A DNA stretch of 50,219 nucleotides. Origin: Shigella phage phi2457T. Shown one piece after another: positions 6,449 through 42,873 of the stretch (the first letter of the stretch is position 1; every line of letters begins with the position of its first letter). A program made the position numbers and the translations under genes. The DNA lies in sequence record MH917278; one strand, given 5' to 3'. The notes under the pieces were generated by a model. That model was not told the DNA's origin. It saw only the letters and a program-made list of their open reading frames with translations, and made no database searches.

Positions 6449-6982
6449 ATGGATAAAATTACCATTTGGGGTCAAACTATCAACCTGTTTCTCGGCACGC
6501 GACGCGTGGCAATCTTTGACTTTGACGGAACGCTTAGTGATGGATCAAAGCGCCTTCACCTGTTGCCGACAAAGGATTTGCACTTAACTGAAAGCTGGTC
6601 TGAGTTTAACCGAGCGGCAATATTTGATAACCCAATCCAGAGCACGATTGAGGTTATGAACTCTATGTTTGCTGCCGGGTATCACGTAATAGTTTTAACC
6701 GGGCGAAGTGATGAGGTTCGTTACGCATCTGAGTTATGGCTTAAGCATCACGGTGCGAGATATGATTACTTAGTCATGCGACCGCACACAGACAACAGGA
6801 AAGACACGGTGATGAAAGAAGAAGCGGTGCGAGCGATCGGTATTGAAAACATCCTGGCAGCTTGGGATGACTCACCGCAAATTATTCCATTATTCCGGTC
6901 GCTTGGAATAACAACATATGCGGTAGTTGACTATGGCGATAACATTCACGATCATTTAAAATCGCACGGGGTAGAGAAATGA
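6449..6982 (+). CDS. HAD-superfamily phosphatase-like protein
   Basis: Motif I FDFDGTL, motif II-like VLTGRS, motif IV-like WDDSP; resembles the phosphatase domain of polynucleotide kinase/phosphatase or a nucleotidase. Confidence 0.55.
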   Translation: MDKITIWGQTINLFLGTRRVAIFDFDGTLSDGSKRLHLLPTKDLHLTESWSEFNRAAIFDNPIQSTIEVMNSMFAAGYHVIVLTGRSDEVRYASELWLKHHGARYDYLVMRPHTDNRKDTVMKEEAVRAIGIENILAAWDDSPQIIPLFRSLGITTYAVVDYGDNIHDHLKSHGVEK

Positions 6983-7090: not shown

Positions 7091-7663
7091 ATGAAAACAG
7101 CTATCATTTTAAACGGCGCTCCTGGAGCAGGCAAGGACACTATCGGATGCATCCTGGCTGACACTTACGATCATGTAGCTTTGCGCAGCTTCAAAGCACC
7201 AATGTTTGAGATTGCTCGGGCAATCCTGGGTGAGGCTAACTACGAGTATTTCATGTTCTTGTATGGGAACCGTATATACAAAGAAGAGCCAGATTCCATC
7301 CTGAACGGTAAAAGCCCGCGCCAGTTTATGATCTGGATTAGCGAGGAAGTCATTAAGCCACAGTTCGGAAATCGCTTCTTCGGCATGCGAGCGGAAAGCA
7401 AGGTCAAAGAATCAGACTCCCTTTCGGTATTTACTGATGGTGGATTCAAAGATGAGGTATTGCAGATGATTGAAGGTGATATCCAGGTCAAGCTATGCCG
7501 AATCCACCGCAAAGGCTGCAACTTTGACAACGACAGTCGTGATTATATTTACCTGGAAGATATGATCGGGGTTAATGGTTATCAGGAGTGTGATTTCTTC
7601 TCTGTCGAAGGTCATCCAGAAATTACCGCTCAGCACATAGCCGCTACGTTCATCAACAAATAG
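7091..7663 (+). CDS. P-loop nucleotide kinase (dNMP-kinase-like)
   Basis: Walker A GAPGAGKDT at N-terminus; size ~190 aa typical of small NMP/dNMP kinases. Confidence 0.5.
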   Translation: MKTAIILNGAPGAGKDTIGCILADTYDHVALRSFKAPMFEIARAILGEANYEYFMFLYGNRIYKEEPDSILNGKSPRQFMIWISEEVIKPQFGNRFFGMRAESKVKESDSLSVFTDGGFKDEVLQMIEGDIQVKLCRIHRKGCNFDNDSRDYIYLEDMIGVNGYQECDFFSVEGHPEITAQHIAATFINK

Positions 7664-7945: not shown

Positions 7946-8286
7946 TTACGATTAACCTATCAGAGAAGCAAGCTCGTGAAATCCTTGATGCGATCGGCGA
8001 CCAATTGCACGTAAAAGGAGCAACTGCCGAGTTGCTCAACCAGATCGAAAAGCAACTTACTCCTGTTTCAACGAATCAAGCTGAGTTTGCAGCCTGGAAG
8101 AGCGAGCGCATCCTGCCAAATATCATCAAGGCATGGAAGCGCAAGCATAAAAAAGAAATCAATGTTGATGACTTATTTTCTGATGAATTAAGTCCTTCAA
8201 AGGTTGCTCAATATCAGTTGCGATACATGGAATCAGTTTGCAATCAGGTCTTAAATGTCAACTTTTCATTCGGGAGTGGTAAATAA
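7942..8286 (+). CDS. hypothetical protein (114 aa)
   Basis: ORF track; ATGA start/stop overlap with upstream gene; SD gaagga. Confidence 0.45.
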   Translation: MITINLSEKQAREILDAIGDQLHVKGATAELLNQIEKQLTPVSTNQAEFAAWKSERILPNIIKAWKRKHKKEINVDDLFSDELSPSKVAQYQLRYMESVCNQVLNVNFSFGSGK

Positions 8287-8516
8287 TGTTTGGTTTAAGT
8301 GAAGCGGAATGGAACGTGGTAAAGCGCGCGGCGAAGGAATTGAATAAATTTGTTAGCGGAATGAAGAAGGAAGATCGCAAAAACGAAAAGATTATGATTG
8401 ATGTGATCTCAACTCATCACAAAAAGGTTGAGCTACTCATCGACCGCTACAAGTTTGTATGGACCGCCGGATATATTGCAGGGCGCGTAGGTAACAAAGA
8501 GGGTGATTACGAATAA
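8286..8516 (+). CDS. hypothetical protein (76 aa)
   Basis: ORF track; SD gggag; TAATG coupling. Confidence 0.4.
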   Translation: MFGLSEAEWNVVKRAAKELNKFVSGMKKEDRKNEKIMIDVISTHHKKVELLIDRYKFVWTAGYIAGRVGNKEGDYE

Positions 8517-8719
8517 TGGCTAACTTACCGAAGAAAGGCGATCAGGTTCGATGTGTTACATCACGCAATGGTGATGCTTTCTCAGCGGGATGCTTGTATG
8601 ACGTTGAAAAAGTAAGTAAAGCAAAGAGACTCGTATTTGTATACGGAGACGATGGAAATATTCATGAGATTGACTACCCGCAGGATATTACTAAGGGCCA
8701 ATTTGAAATTAATGATTGA
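8516..8719 (+). CDS. hypothetical protein, paralogous-family-like (67 aa)
   Basis: ORF track; VRCVTSRNGDAFSAGCLYDV resembles the KC(I/V)...G.IY motif. Confidence 0.4.
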   Translation: MANLPKKGDQVRCVTSRNGDAFSAGCLYDVEKVSKAKRLVFVYGDDGNIHEIDYPQDITKGQFEIND

Positions 8720-33612: not shown

Positions 33613-33640
33613 AAAATCCCCGCAATGCGGGGATTTTATC
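33613..33640. terminator. bidirectional terminator
   Basis: Hairpin atccccgcaatgcggggat flanked by A-run and T-run, between convergent genes. Confidence 0.65.
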
Positions 33641-35423
33641 ATTTGGACTTCAACATTTTTATCTCTTCTTGTAACTCTTCAACTTTCTTTATTGTATCCT
33701 GTAAAGCTCTCATAGTGTCAAGCAATAAAGGAGTTGTATCAAGCTCAAGCCTTTCAACTTTTGGCCCGTTTAGCTCGTGGCTCTCATACATCCTTCTCTT
33801 AACATATAGATTGTCGATCTCTTCTATCTCCTGAGCTATGACACCTCGCCTTACCCTTTCTTGCTCATCATCGTTAAAGATAAAGTTCCTAAATCTCATT
33901 GATTTTATGTTGTTGTATGCAATGCTTGATTCATCATCCTTTATGCTGTGCTTTATATTTCTGTCAGATGCCGGAATCTGTTGGAAACTTCCAGCCCCTT
34001 GCGGTCCAGCGTAAGATATTTGCCCTGAAGCCATAAACCTGAAATGCATTTGCAAACCAATATTGCCTGCCCCATCCCTATCTTGAGCACCTACTGATAT
34101 TTGTGCCCTGGGCCATTCAGGATTGCCCGTAGTCATCATGCCAAAAGCTACGCCGCCAACATACCCTTGACCCCTTGTATCACACGATCCAGCAATAAGT
34201 GATTGATAGTTTTCAGCGCCACTATCGGCAGTGTAAGCATTACCCTGGAAGCATGAAGCAGACCACATCTGGTTGTAACCCATAGATGTTTTCTGGCATA
34301 AAAACTGATTAGCTCTAAATCTATTGTTAGTCTCGAAGTAGTTTGCCCCTTCATAAAATAATAAAGCCCCAGCATAACCATTATCGCTATGTTCTTTTCT
34401 GACGTAAATCCCTGGTGTGGATATTCCATCAGGTGACATAATCATCAATGATGACAATATGGACTGACTACCCCAATTAGAACCGTTCCATGAGTTCCTT
34501 CCTGCCCCTATAGCTCCCGTGGTGTTAACAGTAAGAAAGTTAACAGCATCATTTTCACCTAACCCAATATTTTTTCTTGACTCTTTTTTATCATCAAGAC
34601 CAGCTAGATTGCCATCCTTAGTTAAAAGATTTTCAGCATTGATGCTGTTAGCTGCGTCTTTTGCTTCTTGAGCACTTACCGCAGCAGCATCTTTTGAGCT
34701 TACCGCTTCGTCACGCGCTGCCTGAGCGTCGTTTTTTGCAGAGGTAGCCGTTTGTGCTGCCGTTTGAGCGTCATTAACGTAACCTGACAGATCGCCTTTC
34801 GCGTCATTAATTGCCTGAATCGCCGCCGCTTCTTCTGAGTCAATGTGAGTGATGGATGAATTTTCTTTTTGCTGCACATCGGTTATAGCCTGATCCTTAG
34901 CCGCATTGATGCTACCGACAGCACCGTCAACAATCTGTTGCGTCTGATTCTTGATTGAGTTAGTTTCATCGCGTGCAGCGTTGGCTGCGTCACGCGCTAA
35001 TTCAGCCTGATTTTGCGCAGCTTGAGAATCAGATTTCGCCTGATTCACATCAGCAACTATTTGCTCAAGTTTATTCATATCAAGCTGATTTATCAGGTCT
35101 ATAGCTTCCGCAATCTCAGTCTCTTTGCTTTGATAGTATCGCAGAGTCTCGGCGACGTTTTGAGCTAATCCGTTAACGGTTAGAGAGTCATTAAGTAGGA
35201 TCACATACTTACCGTCATCGGCAGTCTGACCATCAGTAGAGATAGCCTTTAATTCTGTATCACTAACGATATCGCTAATCACAGCCAGCTTAATTGGTTG
35301 CTCAAGGAACACGATAGTTGCACCTACGCGAATAAGAGCAAGCTGATCTTTCCATTTTGTATCGGTTCCGTGAACCGTTCCGTCTGCATCCATTGATGCA
35401 GTACCGCGTCTGTATAAAGCCAT
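33639..35423 (-). CDS. side tail fibre with C-terminal S74-type intramolecular chaperone domain
   Basis: 594 aa; Ala/Gln/Asp-rich coiled-coil repeats; C-terminal region SDRNIKHSIKDDESSIAYNNIKSMRFRNFIFND...RRGVIAQEIEEID matches the auto-cleaving chaperone-of-endosialidase domain. Confidence 0.75.
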   Translation of the reverse strand: MALYRRGTASMDADGTVHGTDTKWKDQLALIRVGATIVFLEQPIKLAVISDIVSDTELKAISTDGQTADDGKYVILLNDSLTVNGLAQNVAETLRYYQSKETEIAEAIDLINQLDMNKLEQIVADVNQAKSDSQAAQNQAELARDAANAARDETNSIKNQTQQIVDGAVGSINAAKDQAITDVQQKENSSITHIDSEEAAAIQAINDAKGDLSGYVNDAQTAAQTATSAKNDAQAARDEAVSSKDAAAVSAQEAKDAANSINAENLLTKDGNLAGLDDKKESRKNIGLGENDAVNFLTVNTTGAIGAGRNSWNGSNWGSQSILSSLMIMSPDGISTPGIYVRKEHSDNGYAGALLFYEGANYFETNNRFRANQFLCQKTSMGYNQMWSASCFQGNAYTADSGAENYQSLIAGSCDTRGQGYVGGVAFGMMTTGNPEWPRAQISVGAQDRDGAGNIGLQMHFRFMASGQISYAGPQGAGSFQQIPASDRNIKHSIKDDESSIAYNNIKSMRFRNFIFNDDEQERVRRGVIAQEIEEIDNLYVKRRMYESHELNGPKVERLELDTTPLLLDTMRALQDTIKKVEELQEEIKMLKSK

Positions 35424-37066: not shown

Positions 37067-39085
37067 GTGACAATTAACATCAAAAAGCAAATCGCATTAC
37101 TTGGCGAGGACTATATAAAACGCACTCAAGAACGATTCACTGTTGGTGAGGTCGTTCCGTATCCGTACCAGGTTGTTGCTTATGCTGAGATCGCAAAACG
37201 CCTATCAAATTATGAGCATCCATTCTTTGTTAAAGCGTCAGTATCGGCGGGTAAGACCATCATTTTTGCTATGGTTGCAAAGCAGTGTCAAAAAATGGGC
37301 TTGAAAATGCTTGTGCTGGCACGCCAGGGTGAGATTGTCGATCAGGATAGTGAAGAGATCGACAATTTCGGGGTGACTAACTCTATATTCTCAGCGTCAC
37401 TTGGAATCAAGTCTTGCTACTTCCCGATCGTGGTAGGCTCTGAGGGTACTGTTGCAAATGGTTTAAATAATGAGCTAGCTGATTTTGTCCCTCACGTAAT
37501 CGGGATAGATGAATGTCACCAGGTGGATTGGGAAGACCTTGCACAAGCCATAGATGGCAAGGAAACGATGGAACAGATGCGGGAAGAGAAGGGAAAAATC
37601 ATTATGAATGGGGAGGTTCCTCTGATTGGTAATGATGGGAAGCCTCTACTTGGAACTAAGCGAAGCCAATACACGATCGTAATCATGGAAATGATGCGCC
37701 GCTGCAAAGAAACTCACGGTCACGACCTCAGAATATTTGGTATGACTGGATCTGAATTTCGTGGCGTAGTTCCTATTCTTGTTGAGAATCCAAAGGCGTT
37801 AGGCTTCTGGCGTGAGCGCGTTACTGATATAGACACCAACTACCTTATTGAGTTTGGCTCAGTTGTTCCTACTATATTCGGCTCGACGGACGGAGTTCAC
37901 TACGATCTTGATAAATTTAAGGCATCAAGCGAGGATGGGGTACAGGACTTTACAGAGAAAGATATGAAGGCAATGGAAGATGAGATCCTTCATGATAAAT
38001 CTCTTACTCAGCGAATCATGCAAATGGTTGCTAAAAAGGCTGAAGAGCGTAACGCAGTCCTGATTACATGCGCTGGGGTGCGTCACTGCAAAGAGGCGGC
38101 AGCGGCACTACCGCCTGGAAGCACATATGCAATTATTACTGGCGACACAGACACTAAAACGCGCAAGAAGATTCTTGATGATGTGAGGGCAGGGAAAATT
38201 AAATACACCTTTCAGGTCATGGCGCTAACTACTGGCGTTAACGTTCCAAACTGGGATTTCAGTGTAATACTTCGCAAGATAGGATCTCTCACCTTGCTGA
38301 TTCAGCTTTTGGGTAGGGGTATGCGACTTCTTAAATCATGGCAGGTTGCTGAAGGGATGGTTAAGCAAGACCATCTTGTATGGGATTTCGCAGGCACGAT
38401 GGATGAGTTGGGGCAGCTTTATTTCGATCCTATACTTGAGCAGGCTCAGTTCCAGAAGCGATTTGAGAACGGAAAAGACCCGAAAAAGTGTCCGAAATGT
38501 GGTTGCGTAAATAGCTTCTACGCTCGCCGATGCGTTAACGTTATCGACGGTGAACGCTGCGATCATTTCTGGACTTCTCAGATTTGCGAGGACCAGGTTG
38601 ATGAACGTACCGGGAAAATTCTTGTTAAAGGGTGCGGTGCCGAGAATGACGTTGTTGCCCGAGTCTGTCGCTGTTGCGATGTTTCTCTTGTTGATCCTAA
38701 CCTTAAGTTATCCGGTAAGGCGTACACTAAGAATGACTGGTACGAGGTCAAGAATTTTGAAGTTACGTTAACCAAAAACCAAAATGGTGTGATATACAAA
38801 TACACACTTATTAACGACGATGGTGATGAGTTCAAGGCGTATGAAAAATTCTTCCCTGAGTCAGACTCTAAGATTTGCGGTACGCTATGGAAAACGAAAG
38901 GAGTATTACCTCACGTATCAGATCCTAAAATGCGTCGCTACTTTATCGGAATGAAGAACGCTATCAAGATCGTGCAATACGCTCATCATATAGCGCATCC
39001 GGTACGCGTTACTCATAGACGCAACCAGAAGAAAGAAGATATTATTTCACGCAAAGATTTCGGTATGGAGGATATCCCGGAATGA
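37067..39085 (+). CDS. superfamily-2 DNA helicase
   Basis: 672 aa; Walker A SAGKT, DEAH-type motif IGIDECHQV, Cys-rich zinc-ribbon near C-terminus; GTG start inferred from ORF track. Confidence 0.75.
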   Translation: MTINIKKQIALLGEDYIKRTQERFTVGEVVPYPYQVVAYAEIAKRLSNYEHPFFVKASVSAGKTIIFAMVAKQCQKMGLKMLVLARQGEIVDQDSEEIDNFGVTNSIFSASLGIKSCYFPIVVGSEGTVANGLNNELADFVPHVIGIDECHQVDWEDLAQAIDGKETMEQMREEKGKIIMNGEVPLIGNDGKPLLGTKRSQYTIVIMEMMRRCKETHGHDLRIFGMTGSEFRGVVPILVENPKALGFWRERVTDIDTNYLIEFGSVVPTIFGSTDGVHYDLDKFKASSEDGVQDFTEKDMKAMEDEILHDKSLTQRIMQMVAKKAEERNAVLITCAGVRHCKEAAAALPPGSTYAIITGDTDTKTRKKILDDVRAGKIKYTFQVMALTTGVNVPNWDFSVILRKIGSLTLLIQLLGRGMRLLKSWQVAEGMVKQDHLVWDFAGTMDELGQLYFDPILEQAQFQKRFENGKDPKKCPKCGCVNSFYARRCVNVIDGERCDHFWTSQICEDQVDERTGKILVKGCGAENDVVARVCRCCDVSLVDPNLKLSGKAYTKNDWYEVKNFEVTLTKNQNGVIYKYTLINDDGDEFKAYEKFFPESDSKICGTLWKTKGVLPHVSDPKMRRYFIGMKNAIKIVQYAHHIAHPVRVTHRRNQKKEDIISRKDFGMEDIPE

Positions 39086-39498
39086 TTACAGATAAAGGCG
39101 ATTACTTAGAGTTTTACGAGCGAGATCCTAGCGACACGCGAAAGGAGGACGCTCATCAAGTAGACTGCGTGTCCTGGTTGAAATACAATTTTCCTCAGCT
39201 TCTATTTTGGCACACAGTTAACGAAGGTGAAAAAACAATCACTTCGGCACTTAGGGATGAGCAGGCTGGATTACTTAAAGGCGTATCAGACTTTGTTATT
39301 CTGATTGGTATAAACTCACGTTACCCGTTCGCAGCTATCGAACTCAAGCGGGTTAATAAGTCCGGCAAAGGAAAGGCATCACCAGTCAGCGATAAGCAAA
39401 GGGAGTTTCTCAAAAAGGTTCGGGATCGCGGTGGATTCTCTGCCGTTGCATACGGATTTGAGCAATTCAAGCTGGCAATATACGATTTAACGAAATAG
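39082..39498 (+). CDS. VRR-NUC domain nuclease (putative)
   Basis: 138 aa; ...AAIELKRVNKSGKGKASPVSDKQREFLKKVRDRGGFSAVAYG resembles VRR-NUC; ATGA overlap with helicase. Confidence 0.5.
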   Translation: MITDKGDYLEFYERDPSDTRKEDAHQVDCVSWLKYNFPQLLFWHTVNEGEKTITSALRDEQAGLLKGVSDFVILIGINSRYPFAAIELKRVNKSGKGKASPVSDKQREFLKKVRDRGGFSAVAYGFEQFKLAIYDLTK

Positions 39499-39565: not shown

Positions 39566-40279
39566 ATGAAAGACTTTAATGATATCGAAACCATTGATTT
39601 TGCTGAAACTGGTTGCTCATTTACTCGCGAAGCAATAGCATCAGGCGGTTATTATCAGGCATTGAAAACCCCAACCTGCAAAGAGATTTCAGGACGTCGA
39701 TACAAGGGAACCAATACGCCGGATGCTGTTCGTGATTTATGGTCAACTCCACGAGAGGTTATCGCATATCTTGAGGGGCGCTACGGAAAATATGATCTAG
39801 ACGCTGCGGCAAGCGAAGAAAATAAAGTTTGCGAGAAGTTTTATTCCCAGGAAACAAACTGCTTAAAACGTTGGTGGGGTAAAAATAAGCACGTATGGTT
39901 AAATCCTCCTTACAGTCGACCTGATATATTCGTCAAGAAAGCGATTGAGCAAATGGAGCACAACAACCAGATCGATATTCTTTTACCTGCCGATAACTCG
40001 ACGGCGTGGTTTACTGAGGCTCGACAGCACGCGGCTGAAATCATCTGGATTGAAGCTGATTTGACTGAGGATATTGACGGAAATGAATACGCACGATCCG
40101 GTCGTCTGGCTTTCATATCAGGTGAAACTGGAAAAGCCGTAGACGGCAACAATAAAGGTTCGGTTATTTTTATTATGCGCGAACTTAAAGAAGGTGAGAC
40201 GCAACAGACTCACTACATCCCAATCACAAGCATTTGTCCTTCCGTTAAAAACAAACGAGCAAAGGTGAGAAAAGTATGA
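39566..40279 (+). CDS. dam: DNA N6-adenine methyltransferase (Dam-like)
   Basis: 237 aa with catalytic DPPY-type motif NPPYS; typical phage Dam size. Confidence 0.75.
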   Translation: MKDFNDIETIDFAETGCSFTREAIASGGYYQALKTPTCKEISGRRYKGTNTPDAVRDLWSTPREVIAYLEGRYGKYDLDAAASEENKVCEKFYSQETNCLKRWWGKNKHVWLNPPYSRPDIFVKKAIEQMEHNNQIDILLPADNSTAWFTEARQHAAEIIWIEADLTEDIDGNEYARSGRLAFISGETGKAVDGNNKGSVIFIMRELKEGETQQTHYIPITSICPSVKNKRAKVRKV

Positions 40280-40593: not shown

Positions 40594-40803
40594 ATGGCAC
40601 GCATTAACGCAAACTTTTTCAATATCGCTCAGCAGTCTGCAAAAATGGCTGTTCATATCACTGAAAAGCAAGGCGGCAATTTTGATTGGGATATTGCTAT
40701 GAACTTCCTTAAAATGGCTTACTATCGCTGCTCAGTCAAAGATGTTGAGTGTTTTATTGAAAGCGTGGAGAAATTAACCAATGTTGATAAAAAAACAAGG
40801 TAA
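40594..40803 (+). CDS. hypothetical protein (69 aa)
   Basis: Internal ATG (MARINANFF) with SD gagga. Confidence 0.4.
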   Translation: MARINANFFNIAQQSAKMAVHITEKQGGNFDWDIAMNFLKMAYYRCSVKDVECFIESVEKLTNVDKKTR

Positions 40804-41053
40804 ACGCGAGGTTTGGGAGCACGCGAAGGAATGCGGAATCTCAGACGATATAGCACTAATAGCGAAATATTTCGATATAAAGGATGTTAGCATTATATCA
40901 AATGGCAAGATTTCATTTATGGAAGATATGCCGAGAAAAATGCATAGAGTGCCAGCAACTCCGTCACTTGAGTTTTATCGTGAAGAAGGAAAGAGAATTG
41001 AGCGAGAACGAAAAGCAGCAAAAAACAACAAGCCTTCCAGGCTTAAATATTAA
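40781..41053 (+). CDS. hypothetical protein; possibly 5' part of a frameshifted gene continuing to 41285
   Basis: ORF 40781..41053 is overlapped in the +1 frame by ORF 40884..41285, which lacks a credible start after 41053. Confidence 0.3.
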   Translation: MLIKKQGKREVWEHAKECGISDDIALIAKYFDIKDVSIISNGKISFMEDMPRKMHRVPATPSLEFYREEGKRIERERKAAKNNKPSRLKY

Positions 41054-41363
41054 CGCAGAAGATTATCATACTATCTGGATCGGAAAAAAGCAGGTTAAGA
41101 AAATCCCTTTCTCTGATTGGTTGCCTCCTGACTTCGTTAATGTGCTTTGCACTATCGGTATGGAACATGAGTTGCGTATAGGTTACTACTCACCTGGCAG
41201 AAACAGTATGATGCTTGAGGTTGACGGAAAGCTGGTTGAGTTTAAATCGTCAGATCTAGGATTCTGGTTAAAGGCTGTGGCATGAATCTTTATTTTGCTG
41301 TAGTATTAACACCGCTAATTTCATTTTCAGTAATGTATTTCATTATCATGTAAGGATTAAAAT

Positions 41364-42515
41364 ATGTCACAAGCTAAAATCACTACCGAGCAACTTATCG
41401 AAGAGCGCATGAGCGGCCTTACACTTCGCGAGATCGCGGAAAAGTACGGTATGCACATCCGCACAGTTGAAGCGCGTCACGCCAAACTTGCAAAAGAAGG
41501 TCACTTCCACGGTAACGAGCATGTTGCTAAGAACGTACCGGAAGGATTCATGGTAAAAGGAACATCAACGATGATTCGCGGCGATGGGACCGAGGTAGTG
41601 CGATGGGTTAAGACCGATCAGGACCGAGAGAAGATTGCTGCAATGATGGAAGCAGCGCGTATTGCATTCTGTGAAGACTTGCCGCGAGCAAAACCAACCG
41701 AGCTACTCACCTCGCAAGGGCTTACAACCGCTATTGGCAAGCTGGCACTCTACCCGGTGTTCGATCTTCACATTGGCGCGCTTGCTCACAAGCATGAATG
41801 CGGAGAGAACTACTCTACAGACGTAGCGGAAAAAGTGCTGAATGACTTCTTTAACTACGCGATCGATATTGCCCCGAACGCAGAGAAGGCTGTTCTGTTA
41901 ATCGGAGGCGACTTCCTTCACTCAGACGGTCTTGATGCTGTTACCCCGGCAAGTGGTCACGTTCTGGATCAGGATTCACGATATGCGAAATTGGTGCATG
42001 TGGCTATTCGATCGGTGCGACGAGCTATCGACAAAATGCTGACTAAACACAAAGAGGTCGAAGTTCAGGTTATCGAAGGGAACCACGACCAGGCCGGAAT
42101 GATTTGGCTACGCGCTGCAATGGCTGCATACTATGAGGACGAGCCGCGAGTATTCGTTGACGTTAGTCCTATGATTCTGCATAAGACCCGCTGGGGAAAT
42201 ACCTTGTTGGGATACACTCACGGTCACACGATGAAAAAGGCAGACACGCGACTTGCAGCGATGGCAGCAGATTTCCGCGCAGATTTTGGTGAAAGCAAAT
42301 ACGTGTACACGCATAGCGGACACTGGCATCATCAGACAATTACTGAACACTCGTTAGGTATTGATGAAGTGCACGGTCAGTTAGGCGCGAAGGATGCATA
42401 CGCAGCACGCGGAGGGTGGCGCTCATATCGCCAGGCGGCGGTAATTGTTTACGATAAGCAATTTGGGGAAATCGGTCGTTTCATCTATCGTCCAGAAATG
42501 ACAGGATCGCACTAA
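41364..42515 (+). CDS. metallophosphoesterase-family protein with N-terminal HTH domain
   Basis: N-terminus LTLREIAEKYGMHIRTVEARH (HTH-like); phosphoesterase motifs DLHIGALAH, GGDFLHSDG, EGNHD (GNHD as in Mre11/SbcD-type enzymes). Confidence 0.5.
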   Translation: MSQAKITTEQLIEERMSGLTLREIAEKYGMHIRTVEARHAKLAKEGHFHGNEHVAKNVPEGFMVKGTSTMIRGDGTEVVRWVKTDQDREKIAAMMEAARIAFCEDLPRAKPTELLTSQGLTTAIGKLALYPVFDLHIGALAHKHECGENYSTDVAEKVLNDFFNYAIDIAPNAEKAVLLIGGDFLHSDGLDAVTPASGHVLDQDSRYAKLVHVAIRSVRRAIDKMLTKHKEVEVQVIEGNHDQAGMIWLRAAMAAYYEDEPRVFVDVSPMILHKTRWGNTLLGYTHGHTMKKADTRLAAMAADFRADFGESKYVYTHSGHWHHQTITEHSLGIDEVHGQLGAKDAYAARGGWRSYRQAAVIVYDKQFGEIGRFIYRPEMTGSH

Positions 42516-42578: not shown

Positions 42579-42755
42579 ATGAAGCGAGTTAAGTGCATCC
42601 GAAATGATTCCAAAACGCTTCCATTCCGCGTAAATCAGATCTATAGTGTCGGTTATGATTTCGGAGGTGGATTGTTTGAGATTTACGATGGTAGAGGTTC
42701 AACAATCAAAGCTCCTATGAACGGTCATTACCTGGAATTTATTGAGCTAGATTAA
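42579..42755 (+). CDS. small paralogous-family protein (58 aa)
   Basis: ATG after conserved leader; MKRVKCIRNDSKTLPFRVNQIYSVGYDFGGG matches the KC(I/V)...G.IY family motif. Confidence 0.4.
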   Translation: MKRVKCIRNDSKTLPFRVNQIYSVGYDFGGGLFEIYDGRGSTIKAPMNGHYLEFIELD

Positions 42756-42873
42756 CAATATCATTCATAACCTTACGGGCTGGCATGGTTTACATGCTGG
42801 CCTTTTTGCGTTGTGTCAAATATATTTGAGGGTTAAAATCAACTCACTTGTTCAAAAAATAAATGGTGATATT

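Follow-up and report, generated by a model that had tools for sequence, protein, structure and literature searches.

Introduction

Metallophosphoesterases are encoded by several well-studied phages. Bxb1 gp47 of the cluster-A mycobacteriophages is required for replication of the phage DNA and serves as an excision factor, the A1 protein of T5 has a metallophosphatase-like domain, and lambda carries NinI in its nin region. Here we describe a gene of Shigella phage phi2457T for a protein that combines a helix-turn-helix (HTH) domain with a metallophosphoesterase domain. The window analysed is the whole genome (record MH917278, 50,219 nucleotides), to which all positions refer unless another locus is named. 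The gene and its product, together called MPE, occupy positions 41364 to 42515 on the plus strand. On balance, we lean towards MPE being a dispensable, host-toxic, metal-dependent DNA nuclease that is tethered to DNA by its own HTH domain.

The most direct genetic evidence comes from Bas01_0050, the ortholog in phage Bas1 (Drexlerviridae). A 2026 preprint on the reverse-transcriptase/primase defence DRT7/UG10 found that Bas1 escapers had missense mutations or frameshifts in Bas01_0050; their positions within the gene are not given in the preprint text. The same work found the gene to be toxic in E. coli, so that co-expression with DRT7 was not possible, and its authors read the product as a nucleic-acid-targeting phosphoesterase. 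Expression of Bas01_0050 on its own is hence reported to harm the host, and the gene to be required for DRT7 to restrict Bas1. Because missense and frameshift escapers arise, Bas01_0050 appears to be dispensable in the laboratory, and the MPE gene likewise appears to be dispensable on a laboratory host. Two further determinants of DRT7 are known: lambda escapes through the loss of Gam, according to the DRT7 preprint, and Bas63_035, a 99-residue XRE-type protein, is the activator described in a second preprint. A precedent in mycobacteriophages is the metallophosphoesterase A10ZJ24 gp48, which is toxic, disrupts host genomic DNA and supports defence evasion. The MPE gene is not mentioned in the transposon-mutagenesis preprint, the Metis preprint, the viral fold compendium or the STAND-receptor paper.

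Results

We scrutinized the coding capacity of the locus in all six frames. The MPE gene, which starts with ATG and encodes 383 residues followed by a stop codon, is the sole long open reading frame (ORF) at 41364-42515, and the ORFs that overlap it are all of 80 residues or fewer. A Shine-Dalgarno sequence, AAGGA, was read directly at 41352-41356, 7 nucleotides upstream of the ATG. All features of the gene given below lie on the plus strand. The predicted catalytic core spans residues ~123-379 (41730-42500), and all five motifs of the metallophosphoesterases (DxH, GD, GNH[DE], H and GHxH) were found in the canonical order: motif I as D134-L-H136 (41763-41771), motif II as G182-D183-F-L-H186 within LIGGDFLHSDG (41907-41921), motif III as G239-N240-H241-D242 (42078-42089), motif IV as Y-T-H286-G-H288 (42213-42227) and motif V as G319-H320-W-H322-H323 (42318-42332). 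The original prediction, a model's reading of the bare sequence, had proposed a 383-residue protein with an HTH-like N-terminus and the phosphoesterase motifs D-x-H, GGDF..HSDG and GNHD. The ORF, the motifs, the family profile and the structural model of the HTH all agree with that description, to which motifs IV and V can be added. It had also taken GNHD as the form seen in Mre11/SbcD nucleases. The motif is present, but GNH[DE] occurs throughout the superfamily and so is on its own no specific sign of Mre11/SbcD.

Conservation of the site was counted over 144 full-length proteins, each representing a 50%-identity cluster. D134, H136, D183 and H286 are retained in 144/144 and N240, H241 and H322 in 143/144, with H186 kept in 141 and H320 in 137 of the same set. 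At least 90% of the aligned members retain the basic residues K83, R206 and R262, and also K209. Two further conserved elements lie outside the canonical motifs. One is an insert of ~20 residues downstream of motif II, T194-P-A-S-G-H199-V-L-D202-Q-D204-S-R206 (41943-41981), with the family consensus T-P-x-S-G-H199-x-L-D202-x-D204-x-R206, which profile alignment did not find in SbcD. The other is a beta-hairpin and helix module between the HTH and the core (residues ~57-105, 41532-41678), in which W81 and K83 are near-invariant. Comparison of the catalytic part with those of T1 and Bas01 gave a nonsynonymous divergence (pN) of ~0.2 against a saturated synonymous divergence (pS) of at least 0.8, which means that purifying selection on the catalytic domain is strong.

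We examined the N-terminal domain in MPE itself and across the family. The HTH, which is tri-helical and may be of the sigma-70 region 4 or LuxR/GerE type, covers residues ~5-50 (41376-41513). In the AlphaFold model it forms a three-helix bundle at residues 8-44 (helices 8-16, 21-28 and 32-44) with a predicted local distance difference test (pLDDT) score of 93-95. The HTH of MPE alone stays below the Pfam threshold, with a best score of 18 bits against a cut-off of ~25 (Sigma70_r4_2, HTH_23 and HTH_28). When the family profile was compared with PDB sequences, its best matches were HTH domains of the GerE/LuxR/FixJ type (E ~0.2-0.3). Among the N-termini of 129 family members, the commonest Pfam matches were all HTH models, namely HTH_1 (46), HTH_8 (32), HTH_28 (30), Sigma70_r4_2 (20) and GerE (15). 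The best E-values reached 6e-11 for Sigma70_r4_2 and 1.6e-9 for GerE, while other relatives matched HTH_1 or HTH_8 instead. The HTH is the least conserved portion of the protein in sequence. Taken together, the modelled bundle, the profile matches and the Pfam matches of the 129 N-termini make it certain that an HTH is present, though not of which subtype, and that it is a constant part of the family architecture despite sequence drift.

Structure prediction and a structural search, both of which the original prediction had suggested, were then used to place the catalytic part. The predicted fold is the alpha/beta sandwich of the metallophosphoesterase superfamily, and the top structural neighbours were SbcD, the PolD DP1 exonuclease and Mre11. 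The cyclic-nucleotide phosphodiesterases MJ0936, Rv0805 and GpdQ were also near the top. Because these small-molecule diesterases follow so closely, the fold alone leaves the substrate unsettled; as modelled, MPE is a divergent metallophosphoesterase that leans to the DNA-acting branches. In profile comparisons, the catalytic part had weak matches to PDB sequences and to E. coli SbcD, which lie in the Mre11/SbcD region of motifs I-III. Predicted viral structures contained dozens of neighbours of ~400 residues from unrelated phages of Lactobacillus, Cellulophaga, Roseobacter and Bacillus, most of which are unnamed or automatically labelled 'DNA polymerase II small subunit'.

The genome of phi2457T is a complete T1-like genome (Drexlerviridae), collinear with that of phage T1 at ~86-93% identity. 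The MPE protein is 100% identical to gp30 of Escherichia phage EF3-1, annotated 'DNA repair exonuclease', and its gene is 98% identical in DNA to those of the Shigella Sfin phages. Amino acid identity is 72% to T1 gp16 (ST16) and 66%, over the full length, to the syntenic ortholog Bas01_0050. The profile of PHROG 704 ('DNA repair exonuclease') matched residues 4-380 with E=5.1e-157, over profile positions 2-389 of 390. MPE is a member of the PHROG 704/T1 gp16 group and of the metallophosphoesterase superfamily. Its sequence is divergent and escapes the curated Pfam models, with 16.2 bits for Metallophos (gathering threshold 27) and 15.7 for Metallophos_2 (21.5). An NCBIfam scan of MPE gave nothing near threshold, a search of PDB sequences with the single protein gave no match, and the family profile gave only matches of E 0.2 or worse.

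Homologs of MPE were found in 2,021 of 50,697 phage records, or ~4% of deposited phage genomes. They include T1-like phages of Escherichia, Klebsiella, Shigella and Salmonella, Jersey-like phages, many Vibrio siphophages, and phages of Rhodobacter and Ruegeria. An exhaustive HMMER scan returned 4,633 cluster representatives at E<=1e-3, of which 957 were at <=1e-30, nearly all with 360-480 residues. The family gene is rare in bacteria, with 28 loci among 185,579 species, each represented by one genome. The family has been catalogued already, the exact protein is deposited and the genetics of an ortholog are published; since the family is catalogued, MPE is ordinary as a discovery.

Several peculiarities of individual members were seen during this survey. 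The marine/Vibrio branch carries a conserved C-terminal extension of ~30 residues (AEEVKDRL...PGT...RRxVYTV) past the position of phi2457T residue 379, which T1-like proteins do not have. The proteins encoded by the copies in MG065688 (Campylobacter phage A110b) and PP134917 (Pseudomonas phage PsgS01F) share 96-97% identity with that of the E. coli phage JulesPiccard (Bas03), and the host labels of these two records look doubtful, which suggests contamination or mislabelling. For the ortholog in Jk06 (DQ121662 / NC_007291, 33017-34140), the annotation shows two or three separate ORFs (JK_62P-64P). The split reflects either a frameshift from sequencing or natural decay to a pseudogene, and a pseudogene would fit dispensability.

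We then investigated the genomic surroundings of the gene. MPE is the penultimate gene of a rightward unit that comprises a helicase (37067-39085), a VRR-NUC protein (39082-39498), a Dam methylase (39566-40279), small ORFs, MPE and a 58-residue ORF, so that the replication-block location given in the original prediction holds. The last gene, at 42579-42755 on the plus strand, belongs to PHROG 4788 and is conserved in T1 (ST14) and Bas01 (bas01_0052). In the gap between it and the holin gene, a strong terminator-like hairpin of 11 pairs (6 G-C) followed by a T-run (42777-42803, plus strand) ends the unit. Beyond the hairpin lie the lysis genes for holin, endolysin and spanin. The order of helicase/VRR-NUC, MPE and lysis cassette is common to EF3-1, T1 and Bas01, and T1 has annotated terminators in this neighbourhood. 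Two small plus-strand ORFs upstream of MPE (40781-41053 and 40884-41285) overlap in different frames; both are annotated in EF3-1, the second from a later start, and belong to PHROGs without assigned function. Elsewhere in the recombination/replication region, the genes for SSB and primase are separated by a tail-fibre gene (33639-35423, minus strand), as they are by ST26 in T1; the remaining tail genes lie far away.

To find a partner gene, the ORFs of 157 related viral loci were called and compared all-against-all by BLASTP, and neighbours that recurred were annotated with PHROG. No conserved partner gene was found among these loci, and no SbcC/Rad50-like gene was found in the whole phi2457T genome or in the annotations of T1 and EF3-1; the original prediction had noted the lack of an SbcC-like partner, and this proved true genome-wide for phi2457T. 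The recurrent neighbours, each in a minority of lineages, were HNH homing endonucleases, deoxynucleoside monophosphate (dNMP) kinase, a PNK-like phosphatase, MazG-like and Q-like proteins, terminase, portal and DnaB. In Vibrio phages the family gene adjoins and follows SSB, and Jersey-like phages have it in a small island amid tail genes. Klebsiella T1-like phages carry a PNK-like (HAD) phosphatase and a dNMP kinase directly after it (for example at 8167-8658 of locus L011 and 8654-9235 of L024), a pairing that would fit nucleotide salvage from degraded DNA. In the near-identical EF3-1 these two genes lie apart from it, in the early region, which corresponds to 6449-6982 and 7091-7663 of phi2457T. 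One bacterial locus was resolved, a lambdoid prophage of Pseudomonas moorei (L172, 3644-15419), in which O-like, DnaB and NinG/Rap genes come before the family gene and terminase comes after it. This is the position where lambda has its own, unrelated metallophosphoesterase NinI.

Nucleotide comparison with T1 (locus L166, 41050-42520) revealed that the gene is a mosaic. The first ~70 codons of MPE, which encode the HTH, differ from T1 in one residue, and the first 90 nucleotides are 99% identical. From residue ~80 to residue 383 (segment 41600-42535), identity falls from ~90% in the flanks to 62-68%, and then to 46% in the last, gap-rich interval. The fall to 62-68% from codon ~80, with saturated synonymous sites, indicates that the catalytic-domain allele of phi2457T was exchanged and is anciently diverged from that of T1. 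The mosaic segment abuts the site of an HNH homing-endonuclease gene that is present in T1 (ST15) and Bas01 (bas01_0051) and absent from phi2457T. Free-standing genes of this type are the most recurrent neighbour of the family gene, usually one or two genes downstream, and were seen in 7/16 lineages, with examples in related loci L004-L162 (L090, 7649-8179), in T1 (L166, 42028-42510) and in templet (L002, 9171-9671). This recurrence suggests that homing has targeted the conserved gene repeatedly.

Discussion

On the basis of these observations, MPE would be a catalytically competent binuclear metallophosphoesterase with chemistry of the Mre11/SbcD type that works without a Rad50/SbcC ATPase. 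We infer that its substrate is DNA, that it is a nuclease and that the HTH serves as a tether. The HTH, possibly together with the hairpin-helix module, would hold the enzyme on duplex DNA, where the His/Asp/Asn di-metal site would cut phosphodiester bonds. The gene would be transcribed with the helicase/VRR-NUC/Dam unit ahead of the lysis genes and would serve an accessory rather than an essential replication function. Within the infected cell, the likely target is either the host's chromosomal DNA or DNA ends and intermediates. We propose that it is because MPE attacks or processes DNA that the protein is toxic when expressed alone and that its loss alters the DRT7 response. The original prediction had offered a DNA-processing nuclease, a regulator or a second-messenger phosphodiesterase, and the first of these is the best supported. 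It draws on the intact, near-invariant site and the purifying selection on the catalytic domain, the weak profile matches to Mre11/SbcD, the conserved basic residues, the DNA-acting structural neighbours, the family-wide HTH, the contexts of DNA and nucleotide metabolism, the ortholog genetics with their toxicity, and the precedent of A10ZJ24 gp48.

Several observations weigh against this assignment. The hhalign profile comparisons with SbcD, T5 A1 and Bxb1 gp47 were non-significant. Foldseek similarity to PDB structures was weak, with a template modelling (TM) score of ~0.3, and the curated Pfam and NCBIfam nuclease models were all below threshold for MPE. The capping domain and the Rad50/SbcC partner of Mre11/SbcD are both absent. 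The toxicity could stem from DNA binding by the HTH instead of cleavage. Finally, the link with DRT7 is genetic only, and the other determinants of that system, lambda Gam and Bas63_035, are unrelated proteins.

The nuclease assignment can be extended to a more specific proposal, which we regard as rather unlikely. T1 is said to possess a non-essential function for host-DNA degradation, 'gene 2.5', reportedly described by Roberts and Drexler in 1981 and never assigned. MPE would be a candidate for it, as a self-targeting, Rad50-independent, Mre11-like nuclease with which T1-type phages attack the host chromosome. The resulting DNA damage or ends would be the infection signal for DRT7, with a sensing logic like that for lambda Gam.

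A different role, which we consider doubtful, is that of a host-repair antagonist analogous to lambda Gam. MPE would neutralise or saturate RecBCD or another end-processing activity and so protect linear or concatemeric phage DNA, and DRT7 would guard the same function. The parallel is drawn from the escape data, with lambda escaping DRT7 by loss of Gam and Bas1 by loss of the MPE ortholog. T1-like phages package from concatemers and encode RecE/Erf recombination functions, and no inhibitor of the Gam, gp5.9 or Abc2 type is annotated in T1, EF3-1 or Bas01. However, the third determinant, Bas63_035, is a small XRE-type HTH protein, and since the three share no sequence relationship, they do not show a common RecBCD logic. 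We had tried Bas63_035 as a relative of the MPE HTH and rejected it, because it is an XRE/HTH_3 protein whose likeness to that domain is generic only. That Gam, Bas01_0050 and Bas63_035 are mutually unrelated suggests that DRT7 reads a downstream consequence and not a shared epitope. Besides, a stoichiometric inhibitor needs no invariant hydrolytic site, and antagonism of repair overlaps with a nuclease activity and does not exclude it.

It is improbable that MPE is chiefly a transcription factor with an enzyme domain, in which the sigma-70 region-4/LuxR-like HTH acts on phage or host promoters and the phosphoesterase is regulatory or sensory. The resemblance of the HTH to sigma-70 region 4, GerE, LuxR and FixJ would suit such a role, as would the position just 5' of the lysis cassette and the label 'DNA binding protein' on some homolog records. 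Yet catalysis matters, since the metal ligands do not vary and purifying selection acts on them, and the HTH is the part that drifts most in sequence. T1-like phages also have a separate putative regulator beside the helicase, and because frameshift mutants are viable, MPE is not an essential late activator. The regulator option of the original prediction thus survives in part, but the invariance of the catalytic site makes it insufficient as the whole story.

The original prediction had also raised, as speculation, a phosphodiesterase for nucleotide second messengers; as an anti-defence enzyme, this would destroy the signals of CBASS, Pycsar, type III CRISPR or Thoeris. Its chances are slim, and it gained no positive support. 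MJ0936, Rv0805 and GpdQ do score close to the top in the fold comparison, and the exchanged catalytic allele in T1-like phages is of a kind often seen in arms-race genes. Against this, loss of the gene leads to escape from a defence and not to sensitivity, the protein is toxic in an E. coli K-12 derivative, and a family-universal DNA-binding HTH, which argues for DNA, has no obvious role in an enzyme for soluble nucleotides. The PADLOC defence models gave no match to MPE. Of the anti-CBASS and anti-Pycsar enzymes described so far, Acb1 has the fold of a 2H phosphoesterase and Apyc1 that of a metallo-beta-lactamase; the metallophosphoesterase fold of MPE is neither.

There is very little to be said for a replisome proofreading or flap exonuclease like PolD DP1 and the polymerase B-subunits, since neither a DNA polymerase nor a DP2-like subunit is encoded by T1-like phages, frameshift mutants are viable and the protein is toxic by itself. 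Equally faint is the prospect of a protein phosphatase like lambda NinI (lambda-PP) acting on host proteins, to which the Pseudomonas lambdoid prophage copy just after NinG/Rap, between replication and terminase/portal genes, and the Q-like gene that follows the family gene in some loci would be agreeable, but whose PPP signature, GDxHG ... GDxVDRG ... GNHE, is absent from MPE.

The DNA nuclease that we favour for MPE would matter beyond phi2457T, whose own copy is one more allele of a catalogued gene and adds nothing new beyond that. The family is among the larger uncharacterised enzyme families of tailed phages and includes T1-like and Jersey-like phages and marine siphophages, which are used in therapy or as models. 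Its gene appears to be dispensable yet is strictly conserved, its expression is toxic to the host, and by genetic evidence it makes the phage sensitive to a reverse-transcriptase defence. Identification of the substrate would correct the label 'DNA repair exonuclease', which is based on fold resemblance only, and would show whether a site of the Mre11 type with its own DNA-binding domain works without Rad50. It could also explain how T1-type phages break down host DNA and what DRT7 senses.

Compared with the systems described so far, MPE is closest to T1 gp16, Bas01_0050 and the rest of PHROG 704, a group labelled 'DNA repair exonuclease' or 'putative phosphoesterase', with which it shares length, domain order and the position between helicase/VRR-NUC/Dam and lysis genes. 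It differs from T1 gp16 in that its catalytic two-thirds are a different allele (62-68% nucleotide identity against ~90% in the flanks), and from the T1 and Bas01 loci in lacking the HNH homing-endonuclease gene that follows the ortholog there. Lambda Gam can be compared in function only, in that loss of either Gam or the MPE ortholog lets the phage escape DRT7; Gam is a small DNA-mimic inhibitor of RecBCD that has no enzymatic site and is unrelated to MPE in sequence and fold. PolD DP1 and the eukaryotic polymerase B-subunits differ in having a partner polymerase. MPE has none, gives no evidence of an OB-fold, and appears to be dispensable and toxic, and no DNA polymerase gene was found in the T1, EF3-1 or phi2457T genomes.

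Among the phage enzymes, the metallophosphoesterases of cluster-A mycobacteriophages (A10ZJ24 gp48; Bxb1 gp47 / L5 gp54, PHROG 221) are also stand-alone and toxic, but they have ~255 residues and no HTH and form a family other than PHROG 704. T5 A1 (PHROG 1745) is partner-less too and is annotated in host DNA degradation, and its 'ESNHD' aligns with 'EGNHD' of MPE, yet it is a protein of 556 residues with a different architecture. Membership of MPE in the family of either protein, or in that of SbcD, was rejected because hhalign was non-significant for all: the probability was 0.4% for Bxb1 gp47, which matches PHROG 221 and not 704, 0.5% for T5 A1, which matches PHROG 1745 only, and 1.8% for E. 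coli SbcD. For Mre11/SbcD, in addition, no SbcD/Mre11 model of NCBIfam or Pfam matched, and profile matches to PDB entries had E ~1.2. Unlike S. aureus SbcD (7DOG), T. maritima Mre11 (3QG5) and E. coli SbcD, MPE has no SbcC/Rad50 partner in its genome or in related loci. It also has no C-terminal capping domain, because the chain ends at residue 383, 8 residues past the last core strand (368-375). In their place it has the N-terminal HTH and the conserved insert of ~20 residues after motif II. MPE most likely works more like Mre11/SbcD than like any other of these systems, yet stands outside the Mre11/SbcD family.

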